DNA of 64,000 nucleotides, taken from positions 2,432,001 through 2,496,000 of the forward strand of contig CH464491.1 in assembly GCA_000002445.1 (NCBI GenBank), written 5' to 3'. The translations under genes and the position numbers were made by a program. Positions 2-61,586 of the stretch are shown one piece after another. The notes under the pieces are model-generated. The model was not told where the DNA came from, searched no databases, and was given only the letters and a program-made list of their open reading frames with translations. Position 1 is the first letter of the stretch. Every line of letters begins with the position of its first letter. The stretch is from Trypanosoma brucei (lineage: Eukaryota).

Positions 2-3000
2 GTGGGCAGTAAAGCGGTGAAAAAGGAGGAGTACCGTAAGAAAAAGGCGGGTATCGAACTCCAACCTAACCGTGGTAGCAATACAAAGGCCTTTCAGGGA
101 CCTACAGCCAGTAGCCGAAAGGGACAGCAGTTGCTGAGAAGTCTTGAGAAGCGGGAAACAGCATTACATGTTCCCGTAGTGGACAAGACCCTGCGGCACG
201 TCGTAGCAGAACCACCGCTGCTCGTTGCTGTTGTTGGTCCACCAGGTGTGGGGAAGTCAACGCTCATTCGCTCCATGGTGAAGTTCTACAGCAACCGTAA
301 CGTTCAGGTGGTACGGGGGCTCATTACTGTTGTTGCTGGGCGTAGCCGCCGTGTGACGTTTCTTGAGTGCCCCAATACATTGACGGCGATGTGCGACGTA
401 GCAAAAGTTGCTGATCTGATTTTATTGATGGTCGATGGTAGTTTTGGGTTTGAAATGGAAACATTTGAATTTTTGAACATCGCGCAAGTGCACGGTTTTC
501 CTCGTATGTTCGGAATCGTCTCGCACCTTGACCAATTGAAGACAGGGAAAGCTCTACGAAAAAAAAAGAGATTTTTACGACACCGCTTTTGGCATGAGGT
601 GGCTGCAGGGGCCAAGGTGCTTTGTCTGGCGCCGATGGTACGTGGGATGTACCGTTCAACTGATGTACTGAAGCTGCACCGCCTGCTCATATGTGTAGAG
701 CCGAAGATACAAAATTGGCGTAATACGCACAGTTGTGTAGTGGTTGACCGCTACGAAGACATCACAGCTCCGCAAAACGTTGTCGACAATGAGAAGTGCA
801 ATCGTACCATTGCGTTCTATGGCTACGCGCGGGGAAGGCCAATGAAGGTGGAGCAGCTTGTTCACATCCCAGGACTCGGCGATTTCCCCATCATGCATTT
901 GTCCCATCAGGACGATCCCTGTGCATTTGACGAAAAAAACGCCAGGGGCGAGAGTAAATCACAGGGGCACAAGATGCGCCACCTCGGTATGAAGCAAAAA
1001 AGAATATATGCTCCCTACTGTGATGTCAGTGGTGTTGTGTACGATGACGATGCAATTTACATTCAAGAGGATGCGGAGAAGTCCACAATTGAGCGTTCGG
1101 GTGAGGGTCTACGACTAATACGGGACCTCCAGCGCGTGAAACCGATCGATGCAGCCGCCACTGCACTTGAAGTGGTGCGCCGGCCAGTTGTTTTTCGTGG
1201 TGAGGATACTATGGAACTGGACATGGGGGATGTGAAGGGGTCGAATACTTCGGTTAGTGATGATGGAGAGGAAAAGGCAACTGAAAGCAGTGACGACAGC
1301 GACTGGGATAGCGGTGAGATGGCTAGCTCCGCAGCAGCAGTGAAGAAGGACTTGTTACTCTACGGTCCCGGTGGTGGTGATGACGGGCTTCGTGTCAACA
1401 ATCCTAGTGCTGATGATGCAGCGGGGCTGGCGCCCCGGGGGCGTGGAGCACCCGATTCCGTTCGTGAGAACACTATCCGTAACGACTGGTCTAACACCGA
1501 TTTGCTTCGCCGTTTGAAAAACCTCTTCGTGACGGGAAATTGGGATTCACCAAATGACGATGTCGGTGATGCTGCCAGTAGCGGTGCTGAGACTGAAGGC
1601 AGTAAAGGATATGAGAGCGAGGATGAGGAGTTTGATGCCATTATCCGTGGTGAAGCGCCACTTGACTCCACCAATGTGAAGGATGAGCATGAAGAGAACG
1701 TTGACGATGAGGGCAATGCCGAAACCGACGAAGAGGAGTGGGACGGTGATGGAGAAACCACCGACTGGGGTGCCTTTCGGCCGCGGGACGCACTCGCAAA
1801 CGTCGGTCATACGTCCAAGGGGACCGTGCCTCACATGAGGAATTTCAGGGCTGCCGAAGCATATGGCAGTATAACCGGAGGAAGGAAAGGTGCAGACAAT
1901 GACGATATGACTGATGGCAGCTGCTACGACATTCTTGCCGAAGAGGGCGATGATGCTGTGGTTGATAGTGCTGCTTTGTCGGACCCCGAATTAGATGGAC
2001 TTGTTGCGACATTCTTAGCACCTCATGATGCATCTGCCAAAAGGGCAGAAACATCATCTGCCGCTCTTCGTGACGACGATGATAGTGCCATCCAATTTTA
2101 TGACCCCAACCACTTTTCTAAGAAGAACGACACTGCTGACGACCACAACGACGAGATGGAGGAAACGACCGCGATAGTAGGTGGAAAGCCTCTGACGGAG
2201 GAGCAAGAACGGTTGCTTCAGAAAAGAATGGCAAAGAAGAAGGCCTTCAACGAGTTATACGACATGGGTGGAAAGAATAATACGTACTCGCACTACCACG
2301 AGATGACACGCGAAGTCGAAGCAAAGAAGGAGCGACTGGACACGGCGTTGCAGGAAGTGGGGCATGATATCACGAATAAAATAAAACTTGTTGGCCACTT
2401 TAGCGGGCTGTATGTACGCTTTGTGCTGGAAAATGTCCCTGTTGAGTTTGTGCAGCTTTTTGACCCCTCAGTCCCCATTATTGCCGGGGGTGTAAATGCT
2501 GGAGAGGACCAGTTTCAAGTTGTACACGCAAAGTTAAAGCGCCACCGCTGGTTTCCAAAGATACTCAAAGCACAGGATCCGCTTTTGCTCTCTATGGGGT
2601 GGCGTCGCTTTCAGACACAACCTATACTGGCCACTGAGGATCCTAACGGCCGCATGCGGTACCTCAAGTACACTCCAATGCACATGCACTGTGCCGCTGC
2701 ATTTTATGCCCCAGTGGCACCTGCGAACACTGGCTTCGTTGCAATCCCCGTGCGTGAGCAGCGCTCGCCGAACTTCCGCATTTCTTGCACAGGCTACACT
2801 GTTGGGAATGACCTCGCCTCGAACATTGTAAAGAAGTTAAAGTTGATCGGCACACCACAAAAGATCATGAAAACCACTGCATTTATCAAGGGTATGTTCA
2901 ACAGCGACTTGGAGGCTGCGAAATACGTTGGGGCAAAGCTGAAAACTGTCGCCGGCATACGTGGTATTGTCAAGACAGTTTTGAAGGGAAAGAATGGCCT

Positions 3001-3601
3001 CATCCGTGCAACCTTTGAGGACAAAATCTTCCCCTCCGATATCGTCTTCTGCCGAGCATGGAAAATGGTTGAGCCGCCTAAATATTGCTCAATCCAGCGC
3101 AACCTCGTGGACGCGGAATGGGTGGGGATGCGACCCATGCGGGAGTTGCGTTGGGCGCACGGTGTGCCGTTGGAATCCAAGAGCGACTCCGAATATCGTG
3201 AAATTAGGCGTCGTAACCGGGCGACTGTAGATGACGATGATGGAAAGGGCAAGACCCCTGATGTGCTCCTCTCGCGCAACCAAAGGCTGAAGTTACCTTT
3301 CAGTTTGAAGGAAGAATATATACCCCTGAAACGCAGCACCGCACTTCAGGAGCAAATTGCTGGTGCAACAACAGTTGCACCAGAGCCACGGGATATGCGC
3401 CGAACAGCGCTGCTAGACATATTAAACGAAAAAACAGAAGCGATGTGGAGGAAAAAAGTTGAGGCGAAGAAGCGAGTCCGTGAACGTCACTTGCGTGAGT
3501 CAAAGGCTGAGGAGGAAGAATACCAACGGCGACTCAAGAAGGCAAAGAAGGAAACGGCACGCCTTCGTGAGTTTCGGTCACAGCACAAGTCACGGAAGTA
3601 A
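2..3601 (+). CDS. BMS1: Ribosome biogenesis GTPase BMS1 (5'-partial: ORF is open to the window edge and the track start is a GTG; a few N-terminal codons lie upstream)
   Basis: P-loop 'AVVGPPGVGKSTLIRS' followed by the 'FLECP...DLILLMVDGSFGFEMETFEFLN' G-domain block. The C-terminal block 'YVRFVLENVPVEFV...KLKRHRWFPKILKAQDPLLLSMGWRRFQT' aligns almost residue-for-residue with the yeast Bms1 AARP2CN/DUF663 region. The middle is acidic/Ser-rich as in all Bms1 proteins. Long uninterrupted ORF (1199 aa). Confidence 0.85.
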   Translation: MGSKAVKKEEYRKKKAGIELQPNRGSNTKAFQGPTASSRKGQQLLRSLEKRETALHVPVVDKTLRHVVAEPPLLVAVVGPPGVGKSTLIRSMVKFYSNRNVQVVRGLITVVAGRSRRVTFLECPNTLTAMCDVAKVADLILLMVDGSFGFEMETFEFLNIAQVHGFPRMFGIVSHLDQLKTGKALRKKKRFLRHRFWHEVAAGAKVLCLAPMVRGMYRSTDVLKLHRLLICVEPKIQNWRNTHSCVVVDRYEDITAPQNVVDNEKCNRTIAFYGYARGRPMKVEQLVHIPGLGDFPIMHLSHQDDPCAFDEKNARGESKSQGHKMRHLGMKQKRIYAPYCDVSGVVYDDDAIYIQEDAEKSTIERSGEGLRLIRDLQRVKPIDAAATALEVVRRPVVFRGEDTMELDMGDVKGSNTSVSDDGEEKATESSDDSDWDSGEMASSAAAVKKDLLLYGPGGGDDGLRVNNPSADDAAGLAPRGRGAPDSVRENTIRNDWSNTDLLRRLKNLFVTGNWDSPNDDVGDAASSGAETEGSKGYESEDEEFDAIIRGEAPLDSTNVKDEHEENVDDEGNAETDEEEWDGDGETTDWGAFRPRDALANVGHTSKGTVPHMRNFRAAEAYGSITGGRKGADNDDMTDGSCYDILAEEGDDAVVDSAALSDPELDGLVATFLAPHDASAKRAETSSAALRDDDDSAIQFYDPNHFSKKNDTADDHNDEMEETTAIVGGKPLTEEQERLLQKRMAKKKAFNELYDMGGKNNTYSHYHEMTREVEAKKERLDTALQEVGHDITNKIKLVGHFSGLYVRFVLENVPVEFVQLFDPSVPIIAGGVNAGEDQFQVVHAKLKRHRWFPKILKAQDPLLLSMGWRRFQTQPILATEDPNGRMRYLKYTPMHMHCAAAFYAPVAPANTGFVAIPVREQRSPNFRISCTGYTVGNDLASNIVKKLKLIGTPQKIMKTTAFIKGMFNSDLEAAKYVGAKLKTVAGIRGIVKTVLKGKNGLIRATFEDKIFPSDIVFCRAWKMVEPPKYCSIQRNLVDAEWVGMRPMRELRWAHGVPLESKSDSEYREIRRRNRATVDDDDGKGKTPDVLLSRNQRLKLPFSLKEEYIPLKRSTALQEQIAGATTVAPEPRDMRRTALLDILNEKTEAMWRKKVEAKKRVRERHLRESKAEEEEYQRRLKKAKKETARLREFRSQHKSRK

Positions 3602-4837
3602 TGGTGGTGGACCACAAGTATGTATAAATATTTGTGTGCCTCACATGCGTATGTGTGCATGTTACTGCATAATAATATGATGGCGATGGTGTAACACACC
3701 CTGCAGATTCGTATTAAATGAGCGGGATTTGTTGCGATCAAGTATGGGTGCCATGACAGGGTGTAATAGATGATAGAAGGAACAGAGGAGACGGAGGTTC
3801 GCATAGCGAGTTGAGGAGCACCGATAGACGACTGCAAGAAAAGAAAGAAAGCGTTTTCTTTTTAATGTGGGGGAAGCGATGACGGCGGCTTTGTGTGAAA
3901 GTATCGGAGAACTACACGTCGGCGATTAGCTGATGTTCTTCAATTCCATTACATTGGGAATTTGTTGCCCGAGTCTTCGTTTGTGGTTGTTGCTGGCGCT
4001 CTTCTTGGGCTCCTTTTCATCCGTTCTCTCTTGATTGTACCATCTCTTTGTAACCCTGAGCCTTGGGGTGTAACAGTTTCCTTCTAACCGTTTAAACTGA
4101 GTTTCGAGTGGTTGAGTTTGAAGCAAGAAGAAATTAAAGAGACTAAAAAGAACACGTAATTTATCTATTTTAAAAAAACAATAAAAAAATAAGCAGTCGG
4201 TACCAATTTGCAGCGGCGGAGCAATGAGGTCTAAATCTCGAGCAATGCTTGACATTAGTGTGGTGCTCAGGTAGACTTGCGAAGTTAAGCGTACGGCTAC
4301 TGTGTTTCTTCCTTTGCCCCTAACCATTTCTTCCCCCCCCCGCCAGCTGACTAGGAAGTTACTAGCACACCAACCTAAATTAAGATCGGGATGGCCATCT
4401 TTCCCTGCACGGGTACAGTCGACGAGCTTTGATCAACCGAGAATCCAAAAGTTACTCATTGGTGGAGCTACCCGTACACACCTTCAGAAAGTTGTGGAAA
4501 ACAGTAAGGGGAGGAAATGATATTACGTTGCGATCAGTTCTCTCCCCTAATATATTCGGTTTTGTTTGGCTGGGGCGTTGGTGCTAATATTCACTATCAT
4601 TGTAAAAAAAACTGATGCTAGGGGTCTTATCAATCTGCACTTTTAAGTCATGTTTCTGGGGTGTCAGTTGAAAGCACCGGCAACAGGTTCGCGGAAGTCT
4701 ATCTCCTCAAATACACCTCCGCCAAAGCACGTATTCAGTATATTTTCCGTATTTCTGGAAAGTTGATGTGTGTGCGTGCATTGATCCTCAAGGTTGTAAC
4801 AACCGAGTGCTGGTTTGCTTCACCAACTTGTTGGCCC

Positions 4838-56930: not shown

Positions 56931-58175
56931 ATGGGATGTCAACAAAGTGGAGTGCGAATGTCTCCTCAGGACCTTAGTGATCGCACTCCCAGTGGTCAAC
57001 ACGGGTTTACAGGGGATGCCAGCAACACGGCACTTCCCACTGTTCCAACAGACTCATGGTATGGTAAAAACTTTAGTGAAACATCACGTATGGCATTTAC
57101 CGAGTTTCACTTAAAGCAGCGGGGAAACATCGTTTTCGCCGGGACCCCCGTTCCTGTTGGCGCCTCGGAATTGGGTGAGTTCCCTGGCAACTCCCCACCG
57201 CTGCTCACAAGGGCAGTTATTGGCAAGGACAATGTGTACGGCATGGCGTACCTCTATAGCACTCCACTTTCCATTGAGCATCAGTGGAGACTGCGTGTAT
57301 GCCACTACCAAATAGCGTGTTCACCCTCTGGACAAACGCTAGGGGAAGTGCCGGGGGCGCTTTCTACACTTCCTGAGACCCCAACGACAGATGAGCAGAA
57401 AATCAGACTGTGGAACTTCGCTAAACAAGTCTACGACCGGCCGCTTTGCGACACTTTTGTTGGGATCAAAGTGTATGTTGACGGAGAGCTTGTGCCCGAC
57501 CGTTATCCGAGAGCCAAAAGTCTCCCAAACTGCACAGCTACACTCGAATCTAGTGAAGTGTTTAATAACTGGACCTGTGTTCCTTTTGTACTTGTTGGTT
57601 ACGTGAACAGTCCGATGATAAGTACTGTTACGATGTACAGGCACCTGTCCCTTAGCTTCGTTGAGTACTTGTTGGGCAAAACCATCACGGGTGGAGAAAC
57701 CGACAGAACAAAAGATGAAGAGGTGGCGGAATGTAAAGACGAGAATACCGTTGGGGATGGACGTAGTGTGGACGCGCCCGATAAGCCGAAGGAGGAGGTC
57801 ACCCAGTCTTTCAATGTTTCTGTAGAGGTTGTGTACGGTTGTGAGGCGGAGATGAATTTCTGCACAGCCCACATTGCGAAGGGGAACATAGAACTTGTTA
57901 TGGGAGAGCACTCAGACGCAGCTTTACGAAAATATAAGGCTTCACTTGAGGAGTTTCTTAGGAAAAGCGGCAACGAGCGTCATCAGGTAGTTGCGGTGGA
58001 TCCTTTGACACTCAAAGGGCGGAACTCGGCATTATGGACTTGTTTGTTTTGCGGGTCTCCCCTGCAGTTCACGTGTACGATTTGCGGCGCCGAGCTGTGT
58101 GGAATGTCTTCGTGTGTGTGGAAGCCCTTCACGGGGTATCCGCTTGGCTGCTCGTCTCATAAGGCGCAGGCGTGA
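56931..58175 (+). CDS. Hypothetical protein with an N-terminal dual-acylation motif (MGC...) and a C-terminal Cys cluster
   Basis: Starts 'MGCQQSG' (Gly2 for N-myristoylation, Cys3 for palmitoylation, Ser6). C-terminal 'CLFCGSPLQFTCTICGAELCGMSSCVWKP' resembles a small zinc-binding module. Complex composition, 414 aa, sense orientation. Confidence 0.55.
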   Translation: MGCQQSGVRMSPQDLSDRTPSGQHGFTGDASNTALPTVPTDSWYGKNFSETSRMAFTEFHLKQRGNIVFAGTPVPVGASELGEFPGNSPPLLTRAVIGKDNVYGMAYLYSTPLSIEHQWRLRVCHYQIACSPSGQTLGEVPGALSTLPETPTTDEQKIRLWNFAKQVYDRPLCDTFVGIKVYVDGELVPDRYPRAKSLPNCTATLESSEVFNNWTCVPFVLVGYVNSPMISTVTMYRHLSLSFVEYLLGKTITGGETDRTKDEEVAECKDENTVGDGRSVDAPDKPKEEVTQSFNVSVEVVYGCEAEMNFCTAHIAKGNIELVMGEHSDAALRKYKASLEEFLRKSGNERHQVVAVDPLTLKGRNSALWTCLFCGSPLQFTCTICGAELCGMSSCVWKPFTGYPLGCSSHKAQA

Positions 58176-59009
58176 GGGTGACTCCCCAAGTTTTTGAGAT
58201 TCAGTTTCTGTATACGTTTCGTTTCGGTGTTATCATTCACCATTACTACTGTTTTCTCAACATCAACCCACTGAGCACGGATGTGCATGTGGGGTATTGT
58301 ATGTCTCTGGGCACTGGCAACGACGCAGGGGGAACAAATGTCCGAACTGGCCGGCTGCATATTTGGCAGATTCGGCTCTACTAAAAATGACGCGAAATGC
58401 AAAAAGGGATATACGTTATCTCCGTACTAATCTTTGCGCCTCCTTACGTGGTGTCAGTTATGAAGCTAATCTGCCTACCGCCCCCCCCCTCTTCCATTGA
58501 AACCCCGGTGTATACTTTTCGTTTTCTTTGTACTTTTCCTTTACTTCTTTTGTTTGTATATTTTATAATAAGGAAGTGGCTAACCTGTTGCTTATGGAAG
58601 TCAGTCGCGTTTTGTGCATGCAACATTGTGCTTAAACTTCAAAAACATTAAAGATAAAATAACGCATTGCACATCCTTCTTTTGCTTTTAATATGGTGTT
58701 GCATCTTGCCGACTGTCCGCCAACCTCGTTTTGCGCCACCAGCCTGTTTTCATTCTTCTTTTCTTTTATGTGTGTGTTATACTTCTCATGCGTTGTTAAC
58801 ACCACTGTAGTTTTCCACCTGTAGGAAACGCCAGGTGCGCCACGGCATCCAAAGGGTTACTCAGCAGAAACCTTACAAGGAAGCCAATTGTCTAACACGC
58901 TGCTGTGGAGGTTTCTATCTGCACCATTTTCCATTCATACATATACGTATACCGATTTCTTTACCCGAATATTTATTTTAAAAAAAACCGTACTCGGGCG
59001 GTTCTTGAA

Positions 59010-61586
59010 ATGCTATCCAAGTTATTCCGGTATGACACGAAACTTCAGGGGAAGCAGGAACTCAGTACCGCTGATCACAGGTCGTTACTTGAGCTTAGTA
59101 TGACAGACAACATTACATCCGTAGAGATTCCGCAGTACAGGGTGCGGGGGACGTTTGTTGAGTATGTGATTGAGTGCACAAAACGAAACATGACGTGGCA
59201 GGTGTTTCGGCGTTACCAGCAATTTAAGGCACTTGACCAGAGTCTGAAACAACTATGCTCACGCGGATCCTCAAGGCACTGTGACTACGGGGTCATTCCT
59301 GTCCTCTGCGGTAGCCACTGGACGGAAGTAACTAACCAGTCAATCGACCTCGTAGAAAAACGGCGGAGGCACTTGGAAATTTACCTCCGCCAGTTGCTCG
59401 TCCCGGGGAATGTATTTTATGTTGCTAAAACCGTGATTTACGATTTTCTTCACGATGGCGCGGTTCCTGCGCAGCACCAAAGGAGGGCCATACGACCGCT
59501 AATTGGCTTTGCAACGCCAGACTCGTTGGCAGACCTCCACTTGGAAAACAGGAACGGCGAAGGGAGTGCGAGCCGGTTAGGGGCGGCCTCAACTCTCAAC
59601 GATAAATCGATTTCTATGCTTGGGCCATCTGCTGTTGGTGAAAGTGATCGAGTGGATGATGGTGTCGGGGACGAAGAAGAGGAGCCCTGCAAATCACCTC
59701 CAGGAGAGACCGTAGAGAGCGGTGAGGAATGTGAAGATTTACCATCAGCTGACAACAGTGAAGCTGAGGACGTGCGTGTGCCGCCACCAGGCTCCTTGTG
59801 CAGGCAATGTAACGCTGAGTTTTCTTCTGTGCTGTATCCGCATCGTTGTTTCTTCTGTAGGCAACAGTTTTGTCGCGACTGTTTGCACCCAGTCGAACTT
59901 GAAGAAGGAGAGGTCGCTAGATCATGTGTTCAATGTTATGAAAACTTTGCTCGAAAGACCTGTAAACCCCAATATCCCCCAACTCCCATGGCTTCAACAC
60001 CAATACTTCAGTGCGCACCTGCTGGTGGTGCGTTGGACCCGTTGAACTTACTCGGTAGTACGTCCCACGTGCGAACAGATGTAACACTTTCTGACTTTAA
60101 GTTAGTTACAACTGTGGGACGTGGCACGTTTGGCAAAGTGATGAAAGTTATCTTTCGTGAAGATGGCAAGGTTTATGCTATGAAAGTGCTCAACAAGTGT
60201 GTTATTCACAAGCGGCGAATGATCGAGTACATCAGGGAGGAGAAGAATATCATGTCCTCTTTACCCTCGCATCCGTACATTGTAACATGTCACTTCGCAT
60301 TTCAGACTGACTACCATCTTTTCTTCGTACTGGACTACCTCCCTGGTGGAGACATGCACTCGCGTGTTTACCCTAAACTCAAACTAACTGAATCGGATGT
60401 CCGTTTGTATATTGCTGAACTTGTACTCGCACTCCAACATCTGCACCGTCACGACATTGCCCATCGTGACGTCAAGCTCGAAAACATTGTCTTGGGAGAA
60501 GACGGACATCTTAAACTGACAGATTTTGGGCTGGCACGCATGAATTTCTCACGGCAACGCCGTCGCAGTTTTGTGGGGAGTCCGGAGTACCTTCCGCCAG
60601 AAACGATTCAGGGGAAGTACCAAACGAAGGCTGTGGATTGGTGGAGTGCGGGGGTCATGCTGTACGAAATGCTGAGTGGGAAGACGCCGTTTTACTCGGC
60701 GTACAATTGTGAAATCTACAACAATGTGTTGAAGGCGGAGTTGGACCTCACAGCCCCGTGTTTCACGCCAGAGGCCGCCTCACTCATTGAACAACTGCTT
60801 CAAAGCCATCCAAAAGCAAGGTTGCAAGACGCAGGGGCAATAAAGGCTCATCCTTACTTTGCATCAATCGATTGGGCTGCTCTCGAAGGTAAAAAAATAT
60901 CTGCCCCCATACAGCTTGATCTTATGGGAAATGATATGAAATACATCAAATGGAAGTTCACGGCGGAGTGGGCTGTTATATACAAACCTCCTGGAGTGAC
61001 ACGTGCTACAATTGACCTTTTGATTAATCGCTTTAGTAACTTTGCTCATGTGAGCGAGGGGACGCCGCCCACGCCGCATCTGCCGATAGGGCAGCAGCAG
61101 GAAGAGGTATCTGACGGAGTGACAAACCCACCGGATATAACCGGCGTTTGGAATGTTGTCAAGGTAGAGATGCAAACGGAGGATGGAAAGATCACGCATC
61201 CTTGGGGAAGTGCAGTGTGTGGAGTGCTAGCGTACTTCCCAGAGGGTCAGTTCAGCATGCAGCTTACATCATATATGCGTCCACATTTGCGGCAACAGTT
61301 CGTGGATCGTGCCGTGAGAGAGGATCTGGTAGAAATGTGCAACTCGTACGCGGGCAGTTTCGGAAAGTATCAGATCAAGCCAGGGAGCAATATCATTACT
61401 CACAGGCTTCACGGCTGCCTCTGTCCGAATCTTACAGGAAGTACACAAAAGTATTTTTTTGAGGTTCGTGAGAGGAAAGAAAATGGGGCTAAAGTGTTGA
61501 AACTTTTTACCGCGTGTAACGCGCTCCCAGGTGAAGACATCTCCGCACAAACCGTCCTCACATGGGAACGGACGGGTTCCTGCTAA
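59010..61586 (+). CDS. PX-domain AGC-family serine/threonine protein kinase with a FYVE-like zinc finger and a C-terminal lipocalin-like domain
   Basis: PX: 'IPQYRVRGTFVEYVIECTKRNMTWQVFRRYQQFKALDQSLKQL' (R-Y-x-x-F-x-x-L signature). Zinc finger: 'CRQCNAEFSSVLYPHRCFFCRQQFCRDC...CVQCY' (~59800-59935). Kinase: 'VGRGTFGKVMKV...YAMKVLNK', 'HRDVKLENIVLGEDGHLKLTDFGLAR', 'GSPEYLPPE', 'DWWSAGVMLYEM', and AGC-type 'HPYFASIDWAAL'. C-terminal 'GVWNVVKVEMQTEDGKITHPWGSAVCGVLAYFPEGQFSMQLTS' fits the Lipocalin_5/DUF1794-type pattern. The track start at 58905 is a GTG, and the first ATG is 59010 ('MLSKLFRYD'). Confidence 0.85.
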   Translation: MLSKLFRYDTKLQGKQELSTADHRSLLELSMTDNITSVEIPQYRVRGTFVEYVIECTKRNMTWQVFRRYQQFKALDQSLKQLCSRGSSRHCDYGVIPVLCGSHWTEVTNQSIDLVEKRRRHLEIYLRQLLVPGNVFYVAKTVIYDFLHDGAVPAQHQRRAIRPLIGFATPDSLADLHLENRNGEGSASRLGAASTLNDKSISMLGPSAVGESDRVDDGVGDEEEEPCKSPPGETVESGEECEDLPSADNSEAEDVRVPPPGSLCRQCNAEFSSVLYPHRCFFCRQQFCRDCLHPVELEEGEVARSCVQCYENFARKTCKPQYPPTPMASTPILQCAPAGGALDPLNLLGSTSHVRTDVTLSDFKLVTTVGRGTFGKVMKVIFREDGKVYAMKVLNKCVIHKRRMIEYIREEKNIMSSLPSHPYIVTCHFAFQTDYHLFFVLDYLPGGDMHSRVYPKLKLTESDVRLYIAELVLALQHLHRHDIAHRDVKLENIVLGEDGHLKLTDFGLARMNFSRQRRRSFVGSPEYLPPETIQGKYQTKAVDWWSAGVMLYEMLSGKTPFYSAYNCEIYNNVLKAELDLTAPCFTPEAASLIEQLLQSHPKARLQDAGAIKAHPYFASIDWAALEGKKISAPIQLDLMGNDMKYIKWKFTAEWAVIYKPPGVTRATIDLLINRFSNFAHVSEGTPPTPHLPIGQQQEEVSDGVTNPPDITGVWNVVKVEMQTEDGKITHPWGSAVCGVLAYFPEGQFSMQLTSYMRPHLRQQFVDRAVREDLVEMCNSYAGSFGKYQIKPGSNIITHRLHGCLCPNLTGSTQKYFFEVRERKENGAKVLKLFTACNALPGEDISAQTVLTWERTGSC

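Follow-up and report, generated by a model that had tools for sequence, protein, structure and literature searches.

The zinc finger kinase ZFK of Trypanosoma brucei: a PX domain, a degenerate FYVE-related finger and an AGC kinase fused to a C-terminal Lipocalin_5 barrel

Gene identity and domain layout

A single uninterrupted open reading frame, opening with GTG, was found at 58905..61586 (+) of the window, that is, the whole 64,000-nucleotide stretch of DNA that was analysed. The GTG-extended product has 893 aa, whereas translation from the first ATG, at 59010, gives a protein of 858 aa. UniProt entry Q965D1, the T. brucei "zinc finger protein kinase", has the same length, and the sole mismatch is at residue 52, which is Y in the window protein and N in Q965D1. 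The gene is T. brucei ZFK (zinc finger kinase, Tb927.11.9270; gene ID from PMC3957582) and encodes four modules in one polypeptide (Table 1). The initial annotation had mixed two numberings, since its range 700-893 for the C-terminal region fits the GTG-extended frame and its range 260-320 for the finger fits the 858-aa protein. Its approximate start of the C-terminal region, 61136, was accurate; the quoted segment, ITGVWNVVKVEM..., opens at residue 710, nucleotide 61137.

Table 1. Features of the ZFK gene, with positions in the window
Feature	Residues	Position	Strand	Evidence
Complete ZFK coding sequence (858 codons + stop), Tb927.11.9270-type		59010..61586	+	ORF, Q965D1 comparison
PX domain	58-148	59181..59453	+	Pfam PF00787, Nischarin/KIF16B PX alignments, orthologue alignment
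FYVE-related eight-Cys zinc finger, degenerate	263-313	59796..59948	+	Pfam sub-threshold, Cys alignment to solved FYVE
AGC-group kinase catalytic domain	364-617	60099..60860	+	Pfam Pkinase, PDB matches, motifs
AGC C-terminal tail: NDMKYIKWKFTAEWA (641-655), hydrophobic motif F675-S-N-F678	618-683	60861..61058	+	Orthologue + RSK2/AKT alignment
Hydrophobic motif-to-barrel linker, poorly conserved	684-711	61059..61142	+	Low pLDDT, orthologue variation
Lipocalin_5 (PF13924) calycin-type beta-barrel, G712-x-W714 N-terminal motif	712-854	61143..61571	+	

The PX domain and the FYVE-related finger

The PX domain proposed in the initial annotation was recovered by Pfam (PF00787) with 34.7 bits, above the gathering cutoff of 21.6, and the closest solved PX domains in a PDB sequence search were those of Nischarin, KIF16B, SNX16, p40phox and CISK/SGK3. 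Binding residues were assessed against the four "RYKR" PI3P contacts defined in PMC10380299 (RR[YF], the PPK-loop Lys and the alpha2 Arg). By sequence alignment, three of these canonical contacts are kept. R67-R68-Y69 and the alpha2 Arg cluster at 118-120 (EKRRRHLEIYL) are retained, and the PPK loop reads IPVLCGS, in which Ser replaces the canonical Lys and Cys the second Pro.

The finger contains eight cysteines in four CxxC pairs (C264/267, 280/283, 288/291 and 306/309), which match the FYVE domains of WDFY3, ZFYVE16 and FGD5 Cys-for-Cys in the PDB sequence search. Of the two readings offered earlier for this C4-C4 finger, a FYVE or a RING variant, the former was thus borne out, and the RING-type reading was dropped because FYVE domains are the best matches. 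The basic signature is missing, however. The finger has no WxxD or upstream Trp (PPPGSLC), and YPHRCF and RSC stand in place of R(R/K)HHCR and RVC, so that the PI3P-binding signature is absent. The PF01363 score of the T. brucei finger was 20.1 bits, under the 27.8 cutoff, as compared to 27.0 in T. cruzi, 24.5 in a Bodo-like orthologue and 62 bits in the diplonemid orthologues, which have a canonical FYVE. Across the ZFK family, the domain is canonical in diplonemids and degenerate or absent in kinetoplastid lineages.

The AGC kinase and its tail

The catalytic domain was identified by the Pfam Pkinase model (residues 364-617, E 5.6e-63) at 60099-60860, close to the span of 60090-60870 given before. 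The top 60 PDB matches were all AGC kinases (RSK, AKT, SGK, PKC, PKN, S6K and PKA; E 1e-65 to 1e-57), with RSK2, AKT2, SGK1, PKC-iota and PKN at the top (E about 1e-65), and the alignments extend into the AGC tail. The catalytic motifs are intact, including the Gly loop at 370-377 (GxGxxG), K392, HRD at 485-487 and DFG at 505-507. In the T-loop, RRRS520FVGSPEY, residue S520 aligns with the T-loop Ser of RSK2 (KKAYSFCGT, AYSFCGTVEY). These matches and motifs agree with the AGC assignment of the initial annotation and with the classification of ZFK in PMC1266030.

The tail is of the AGC type and carries NDMKYIKWKFTAEW and an FxxF hydrophobic motif, F675-S-N-F678; the orthologue consensus is NDTKYF.R(E/D)FT.EWA ... 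RFSNF. Since FSNF is followed by Ala, the hydrophobic motif has no phospho-acceptor. Pfam Pkinase_C gave no match in ZFK, and the tail is therefore atypical. In an AF2 model of kinase plus barrel (overall pTM 0.61), pLDDT is 78-90 in the tail helix and in FSNF, and 27-45 in the linker at residues about 685-705. The linker, of about 30 residues, also varies in length and sequence among ZFK orthologues.

The C-terminal Lipocalin_5 barrel

The Lipocalin_5 model aligned over profile positions 2-141 of 142 with 156.3 bits (cutoff 25, E 6.1e-46), a match that, judged by its sequence score, lies far beyond chance. A confident structure model of the C-terminus displays a calycin-type up-and-down barrel of eight beta-strands plus one helix. 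Thus, as modelled, the C-terminal domain is a genuine Lipocalin_5 barrel, in agreement with the bacterial-type, lipocalin-like barrel proposed at the outset. Two contrary outcomes had been named, the lack of any barrel match and a C-terminus consisting of AGC tail only, and neither was found.

The relationship is to Lipocalin_5 and not to the kernel lipocalins. PF00061 gave no match in ZFK at E<=1, with only the SCR1-like GxW motif present, and in Foldseek comparisons TM reached only about 0.4 against RBP4 and similar proteins. Structural neighbours include the lipid-binding barrels APCDD1, YceI and BT_2261. The PDB sequence search with the barrel returned nothing meaningful and no close solved homologue, and neither the barrel nor its stand-alone relatives are covered by an NCBIfam model. 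In the literature on PF13924/Lipocalin_5, we found no member with a demonstrated function or ligand.

Distribution and conservation of the barrel

The C-terminal module was retained in 43/43 orthologues examined, which answers the earlier question of whether other trypanosomatids keep it. These orthologues range over Trypanosoma, Leishmania, Phytomonas, Bodo, Diplonema and Lacrimia, and the PX-kinase-barrel fusion is present in both diplonemids, Diplonema papillatum and Lacrimia lanifica (the latter from a TRINITY transcriptome). Neither the 2023 survey nor the named matches of the full-length search contained such a fusion outside kinetoplastids and diplonemids. The arrangement of four modules was already present in the common ancestor of these two groups.

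Relatives of the barrel were collected by an exhaustive profile search, whereas a word-indexed search with the barrel alone gave no match. The nearest ones beyond the kinase fusions are stand-alone metagenome proteins of ~145 aa and one protein from a Bacteroidetes MAG. Family residues kept in the T. brucei barrel are G712, W714, E720, P731, G733, Y742, Q751, R757, Y780, F784, G785, Y787, H798, P806 and N807. Seven of them (E720, Y742, Q751, R757, Y780, H798 and N807) are conserved both family-wide and within the ZFK clade, which argues that a functional site was kept rather than a bare scaffold. In the genus Trypanosoma, three near-invariant positions of the stand-alone relatives have changed: an Arg (100%) to Y815, a Tyr (97%) to S783 and the Trp of PNW to L808. 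In T. brucei, these changes may have modified or abolished the ancestral site.

A search for related loci with the stand-alone protein P0129 recovered a single bacterial locus. A PKS-like ORF stands 3 bp upstream of one bacterial member of the family. This neighbour is a single hint of a lipid or polyketide association.

Relation to earlier work on ZFK

As cited in PMC3827541 and PMC4403954, ZFK was described as a PX/FYVE-related kinase by Vassella et al. 2001 (Mol Microbiol 41:33). According to passages in PMC3957582, PMC4403954 and PMC3827541, slender-to-stumpy differentiation of pleomorphic T. brucei is faster in vitro after loss of ZFK, and these papers regard the kinase as a "slender retainer", which negatively regulates the formation of stumpy cells. 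The knockout phenotype was observed in vitro and not in vivo (PMC4403954). The Leishmania orthologue is named zfk or "differentiation inhibitory kinase", and L. mexicana zfk mutants show reduced fitness as amastigotes and in mice (PMC7902614).

The domain fusion, called unusual in the initial annotation, is real and comprises four modules by Pfam, but it had already been catalogued. The PX-kinase-Lipocalin_5 combination is already known from the Pfam annotations of Q965D1 and from PMC10380299 (IJMS 2023), where "subfamily D" has the architecture PX-Pkinase-Lipocalin_5, confined to Kinetoplastea. The lipocalin-like C-terminus goes unmentioned in the ZFK papers searched, and no paper was found that links ZFK with lipocalins. 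What is added here amounts only to refinements: a distribution that extends to diplonemids, the degeneracy of the FYVE finger, a hydrophobic motif that cannot be phosphorylated, and changed barrel residues in Trypanosoma.

Proposed mechanism and alternative explanations

With moderate confidence, we favor a model in which ZFK is recruited by PI3P and carries a ligand-binding barrel that tunes the kinase, with "stay proliferative" as its output. The PX domain, by its sequence, would bring the kinase to endosomal membranes rich in PI3P. In the ancestor, the finger would have read PI3P as well, and in trypanosomatids it may now serve mainly as a structural or protein-contact zinc module. The hydrophobic motif would dock in cis onto the N-lobe of the kinase, and the tethered barrel would bind a small hydrophobic, lipid-like ligand and thereby tune how active or stable the kinase is or where it is localised. 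In this way, a cue from a metabolite or lipid could be coupled to the "stay proliferative" phosphorylation output. We consider it unlikely that the barrel is a true ligand sensor in the full sense, in which a small hydrophobic molecule of parasite or host would gate ZFK on PI3P endosomes. Such a sensor would provide a direct metabolite-to-kinase input to the slender/stumpy and Leishmania stage decisions, through a module of bacterial origin acquired before the kinetoplastid-diplonemid split.

A possible, though doubtful, alternative is that the barrel has no small-molecule ligand and instead makes protein-protein contacts, whether to dock substrates, to dimerise or to pack against the kinase and inhibit it. 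Many polar barrel residues conserved across the family are nevertheless still conserved in the ZFK clade, and the AF2 model, with its pTM of 0.61 and its low-pLDDT linker, weakly suggests that kinase and barrel may have no fixed arrangement. That the barrel is instead a membrane or lipid-headgroup module, acting with the PX domain in coincidence detection on endosomes and offsetting the degenerate trypanosomatid FYVE, appears to us quite improbable. The loss of the canonical FYVE in kinetoplastid lineages and the presence of lipid-binding barrels among the structural neighbours are consistent with such a role, but diplonemids carry a canonical FYVE as well as the barrel, and the barrel therefore did not arise as a FYVE replacement. 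We give very little credence to the idea that the barrel is a lipocalin-like enzyme, for instance an isomerase or a cyclase, joined to the kinase. Two further proposals are refuted: that the C-terminus is an AGC-tail extension only, and that two genes were wrongly joined in the gene model or the assembly. Nothing was found in their favor apart from the atypical tail, unmatched by Pkinase_C. Against them stand the full-length Lipocalin_5 match (E 6e-46), the confident barrel model, the continuous ORF and the same fusion in 43 orthologues from independent genomes and in the Lacrimia transcriptome.

Few "slender retainer" kinases are known in T. brucei, and ZFK is one of them; in Leishmania, its orthologue affects fitness in the mammalian host. 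If the favored model of a ligand-binding barrel is true, the barrel would offer a handle for chemical control and for finding the signal of the kinase. This handle would be parasite-specific because of the restriction of the fusion to kinetoplastids and diplonemids in the named matches and the 2023 survey.

Comparison with known systems

The "subfamily D" of Kinetoplastea (PMC10380299) shares its architecture, protein family and Pfam models with ZFK. The name ZFK is absent from that study, and FYVE is not among its PX-protein domains. The fusion was limited there to Kinetoplastea, whereas we observed it also in D. papillatum and L. lanifica, together with a canonical FYVE.

The stand-alone Lipocalin_5 proteins belong to the same Pfam family as the ZFK barrel (138 bits for P0129 and 156 bits for the barrel) and have the motifs GxW, PxG, Y..YFG.Y, H and PN in common with it. 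They are ~145 aa long, consist of one domain or a tandem and often carry a signal peptide, whereas the ZFK barrel is fused to a kinase, and they retain Arg, Tyr and Trp at the positions where T. brucei differs. Nitrobindin and the C-terminal domain of THAP4, compared as examples of domain-fused calycin barrels, belong to another Pfam family with a 10-stranded barrel that binds heme via a proximal His; the PDB sequence search showed no sequence similarity to the ZFK barrel.

SGK3/CISK shares the N-terminal PX domain and the AGC kinase with ZFK, as seen from the CISK/SGK3 PX domain and the SGK1 kinase among the PDB matches. Its hydrophobic motif is phosphorylatable, whereas that of ZFK is FSNF-A, and it has neither the zinc finger nor the C-terminal barrel. 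The ZFK kinase scored equally for RSK2, AKT2 and SGK1 (223-221 bits), and orthology with SGK3 is not established because RSK, AKT, SGK and PKC score about equally. By analogy, endosomal recruitment through PI3P is a plausible logic common to ZFK and SGK3.

Gene identity and domain architecture

A single open reading frame spans window positions 58905–61586 on the plus strand, and its first ATG, at 59010, opens a protein of 858 codons. The gene is the already named and studied kinase ZFK, Tb927.11.9270 (PMC3957582). The encoded protein differs from UniProt Q965D1 ('Zinc finger protein kinase', Trypanosoma brucei brucei) at one residue, Y52N. Codon 52 (window 59163–59165) encodes Tyr, as at this PX position in all other orthologues, and Asn is present in Q965D1. 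Thus, the window probably represents a strain other than the source of the original ZFK clone, or else Q965D1 contains a variant or error. All ORFs of at least 286 aa in the window lie on the plus strand, a layout that looks like a trypanosomatid polycistronic unit. No Pfam domains were found in the three upstream neighbours scanned. The upstream neighbour, a 414-aa ORF (56931–58175, plus strand) without Pfam match, has a Cys-rich C-terminal end (CLFCGSPLQFTCTICGAELCGMSSC) resembling a small zinc-binding motif.

The initial annotation, made from the sequence alone, had read the gene as a fusion of PX, FYVE-like finger, AGC kinase and C-terminal lipocalin-like barrel, and all four modules were recovered by domain analysis.

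Domains and segments of ZFK, with residues counted from the ATG at 59010
Feature	Residues	Strand	Evidence
PX	58–148	+	Pfam 34.7 bits (cutoff 21.6)
FYVE-related finger	263–313	+	Pfam FYVE 20.1 bits (under cutoff 27.8)
AGC kinase	364–617	+	Pfam E 5.6e-63
AGC tail	618–683	+	contains NDMKYIKWKFTAEWA; orthologue consensus NDTKYF.R(E/D)FT.EWA
Lipocalin_5 (PF13924)	712–854	+	E 6.1e-46, 156 bits (cutoff 25), profile 2–141/142

PX domain and zinc finger

By PDB sequence comparison, the closest solved PX domains are those of Nischarin, KIF16B, SNX16, p40phox and CISK/SGK3. R67-R68-Y69 and the Arg cluster of alpha2 (EKRRRHLEIYL) are kept in all aligned orthologues. The PPK loop reads IPVLCGS, so that Ser replaces the canonical Lys of the 'RYKR' contacts with PtdIns3P (PMC10380299). 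The eight cysteines of the finger form four CxxC pairs and align one for one with those of the FYVE domains in WDFY3, ZFYVE16 and FGD5. The finger lacks WxxD, and YPHRCF and RSC replace R(R/K)HHCR and RVC, respectively. 'FYVE-related' is the apt name, and the original ZFK paper already carries this wording in its title (Vassella et al. 2001, in the reference list of PMC3827541).

Kinase domain and AGC tail

The Gly loop, K392, HRD and DFG are all intact. The best 60 solved relatives in a PDB search are AGC kinases throughout (E about 1e-65 to 1e-57), including the RSK2 N-terminal domain, AKT2, SGK1, PKC-iota, PKN, S6K and PKA. The T-loop RRRS520FVGSPEY pairs with the RSK2 motif AYSFCGTVEY, and the alignment extends into the AGC tail. 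The tail terminates in the hydrophobic motif F675-S-N-F678, and the next residue is Ala, with Val or Pro at that position in orthologues, so there is no phospho-acceptor. The TriTryp kinome lists one T. brucei kinase with PX and one with FYVE, both AGC (PMC1266030).

T. brucei and T. vivax ZFK carry HRDVKLEN (window 60474–60476), whereas most other orthologues have HRDLKPEN. In both species PPE replaces the APE motif (60594–60596). These appear to be minor departures from otherwise canonical catalytic motifs. The Bodo saltans orthologue P0008 has 1135 aa and repeats the C-terminal half of its kinase domain, with …RNIVLDEDGHVRLTDFGLARANFSRGRRRSFVGSAEY… present twice. The repeat seems to stem from assembly or gene modelling and not to be biological, and P0008 was omitted from the second alignment.

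The C-terminal barrel

An AlphaFold2 model of residues 701–858, based on a 22-sequence orthologue alignment, displayed eight strands and one helix (mean pLDDT 85.2, pTM 0.77). The C-terminal module is a real barrel, as proposed. A tail extension only is excluded by the Lipocalin_5 match and the model, and an artefact by the continuous ORF and by the recurrence of the fusion in 43 orthologues. Foldseek returned only weak retinol-binding-protein matches and no sequence relatives were found in the PDB; by these searches the barrel is without close structure or characterised homologue. The linker ahead of the module is about 30 residues long and poorly conserved. A second AlphaFold2 run on kinase and barrel (residues 350–858, 14 sequences) reached pTM 0.61, with pLDDT values of 78–90 for FSNF and the tail helix and of 27–45 for the linker 685–705. 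This pattern is suggestive of in-cis docking of the hydrophobic motif, with the barrel held on a flexible tether.

We aligned 22 ZFK-clade barrels with 109 stand-alone relatives. Most of the family-wide conserved set is kept in ZFK: G712, W714, L716, E720, P731, G733, G738, Y742, G746, Q751, R757, Y780, F784, G785, Y787, H798, P806, N807, W852 and R854. T. brucei departs from the stand-alone relatives at three positions that hardly vary among them. The Arg of 109/109 relatives (100%) is Y815 (window 61452–61454), with Tyr/Phe throughout the genus Trypanosoma, whereas diplonemids and most other kinetoplastids have Arg. The Tyr of 97% of the relatives is S783 (61356–61358), Ser being found across the ZFK clade, and the Trp of PNW is L808 (61431–61433). 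The site thus appears mostly conserved yet remodelled, and the three changes suggest a remodelled putative pocket.

Distribution and history

The barrel lies at or near the C-terminus in 43/43 full-length orthologues recovered, with insertions within it in Leishmaniinae and Phytomonas. Orthologues range over Trypanosoma, Leishmania, Leptomonas, Phytomonas, Bodo saltans and many environmental sequences, and include two from diplonemids, Diplonema papillatum (KAJ9454853.1) and Lacrimia lanifica (EukProt transcriptome). The diplonemid finger scores 62 bits as a FYVE of canonical type, with RKHHCRxCG and RVC, whereas the kinetoplastid finger is degenerate, and missing in some environmental clades. 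The four-module protein therefore predates the kinetoplastid–diplonemid split, with later decay of the FYVE in kinetoplastids.

When 1.84 billion representative proteins were searched exhaustively with a profile, 3631 barrel relatives emerged. Beyond kinase fusions, the best matches (E about 1e-28 to 1e-19) come from metagenomes and are stand-alone proteins, about 145 aa in length; signal peptides or tandem barrels occur in some of them. One relative was placed in a Bacteroidetes MAG, which supports the 'bacterial-type' label given initially.

The metagenomic relatives P0132 and P0235 include tandem double barrels (329 aa) that follow a signal or lipoprotein-like N-terminus, and Lipocalin_5 joined to a putative Kelch-type repeat propeller (522 aa, by eye), which indicates that Lipocalin_5 is modular in prokaryote-like proteins too. 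In the MAG contig RDXI01000139.1 (locus L001:153-4441), a stand-alone Lipocalin_5-type ORF (3968..4441, 157 aa) begins 3 bp past a putative type-I PKS-like ORF (153..3965, 1270 aa; by eye, KS/AT/ACP/TE-like sequence). This single hint raises the possibility that bacterial members act on lipid or polyketide products.

Possible function

[quoted passage not shown] It is established that ZFK has this architecture, that its AGC catalytic machinery is intact, that the barrel is real and that conservation is deep. With SGK3 as the model, the PX domain would recruit ZFK to PI3P and endosomes, and the finger would now be structural.

The barrel may bind a small hydrophobic ligand and thereby modulate the kinase, a reading that we hold tentatively, at somewhat below an even chance. 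A protein-interaction or autoinhibitory module is rather unlikely, a membrane-binding coincidence detector clearly more so, and an enzyme highly improbable.

Comparison with known systems

The fusion was read correctly but was already known: ZFK is a named kinase, its PX and FYVE-related domains have been in print since 2001, and PF13924 is assigned to ZFK and its orthologues in public databases, where the T. melophagium copy is named 'Lipocalin-like domain'. Our analysis adds the FYVE finger's history, a hydrophobic motif that cannot be phosphorylated, the barrel residues changed in Trypanosoma and the presence in diplonemids. [quoted passage not shown]
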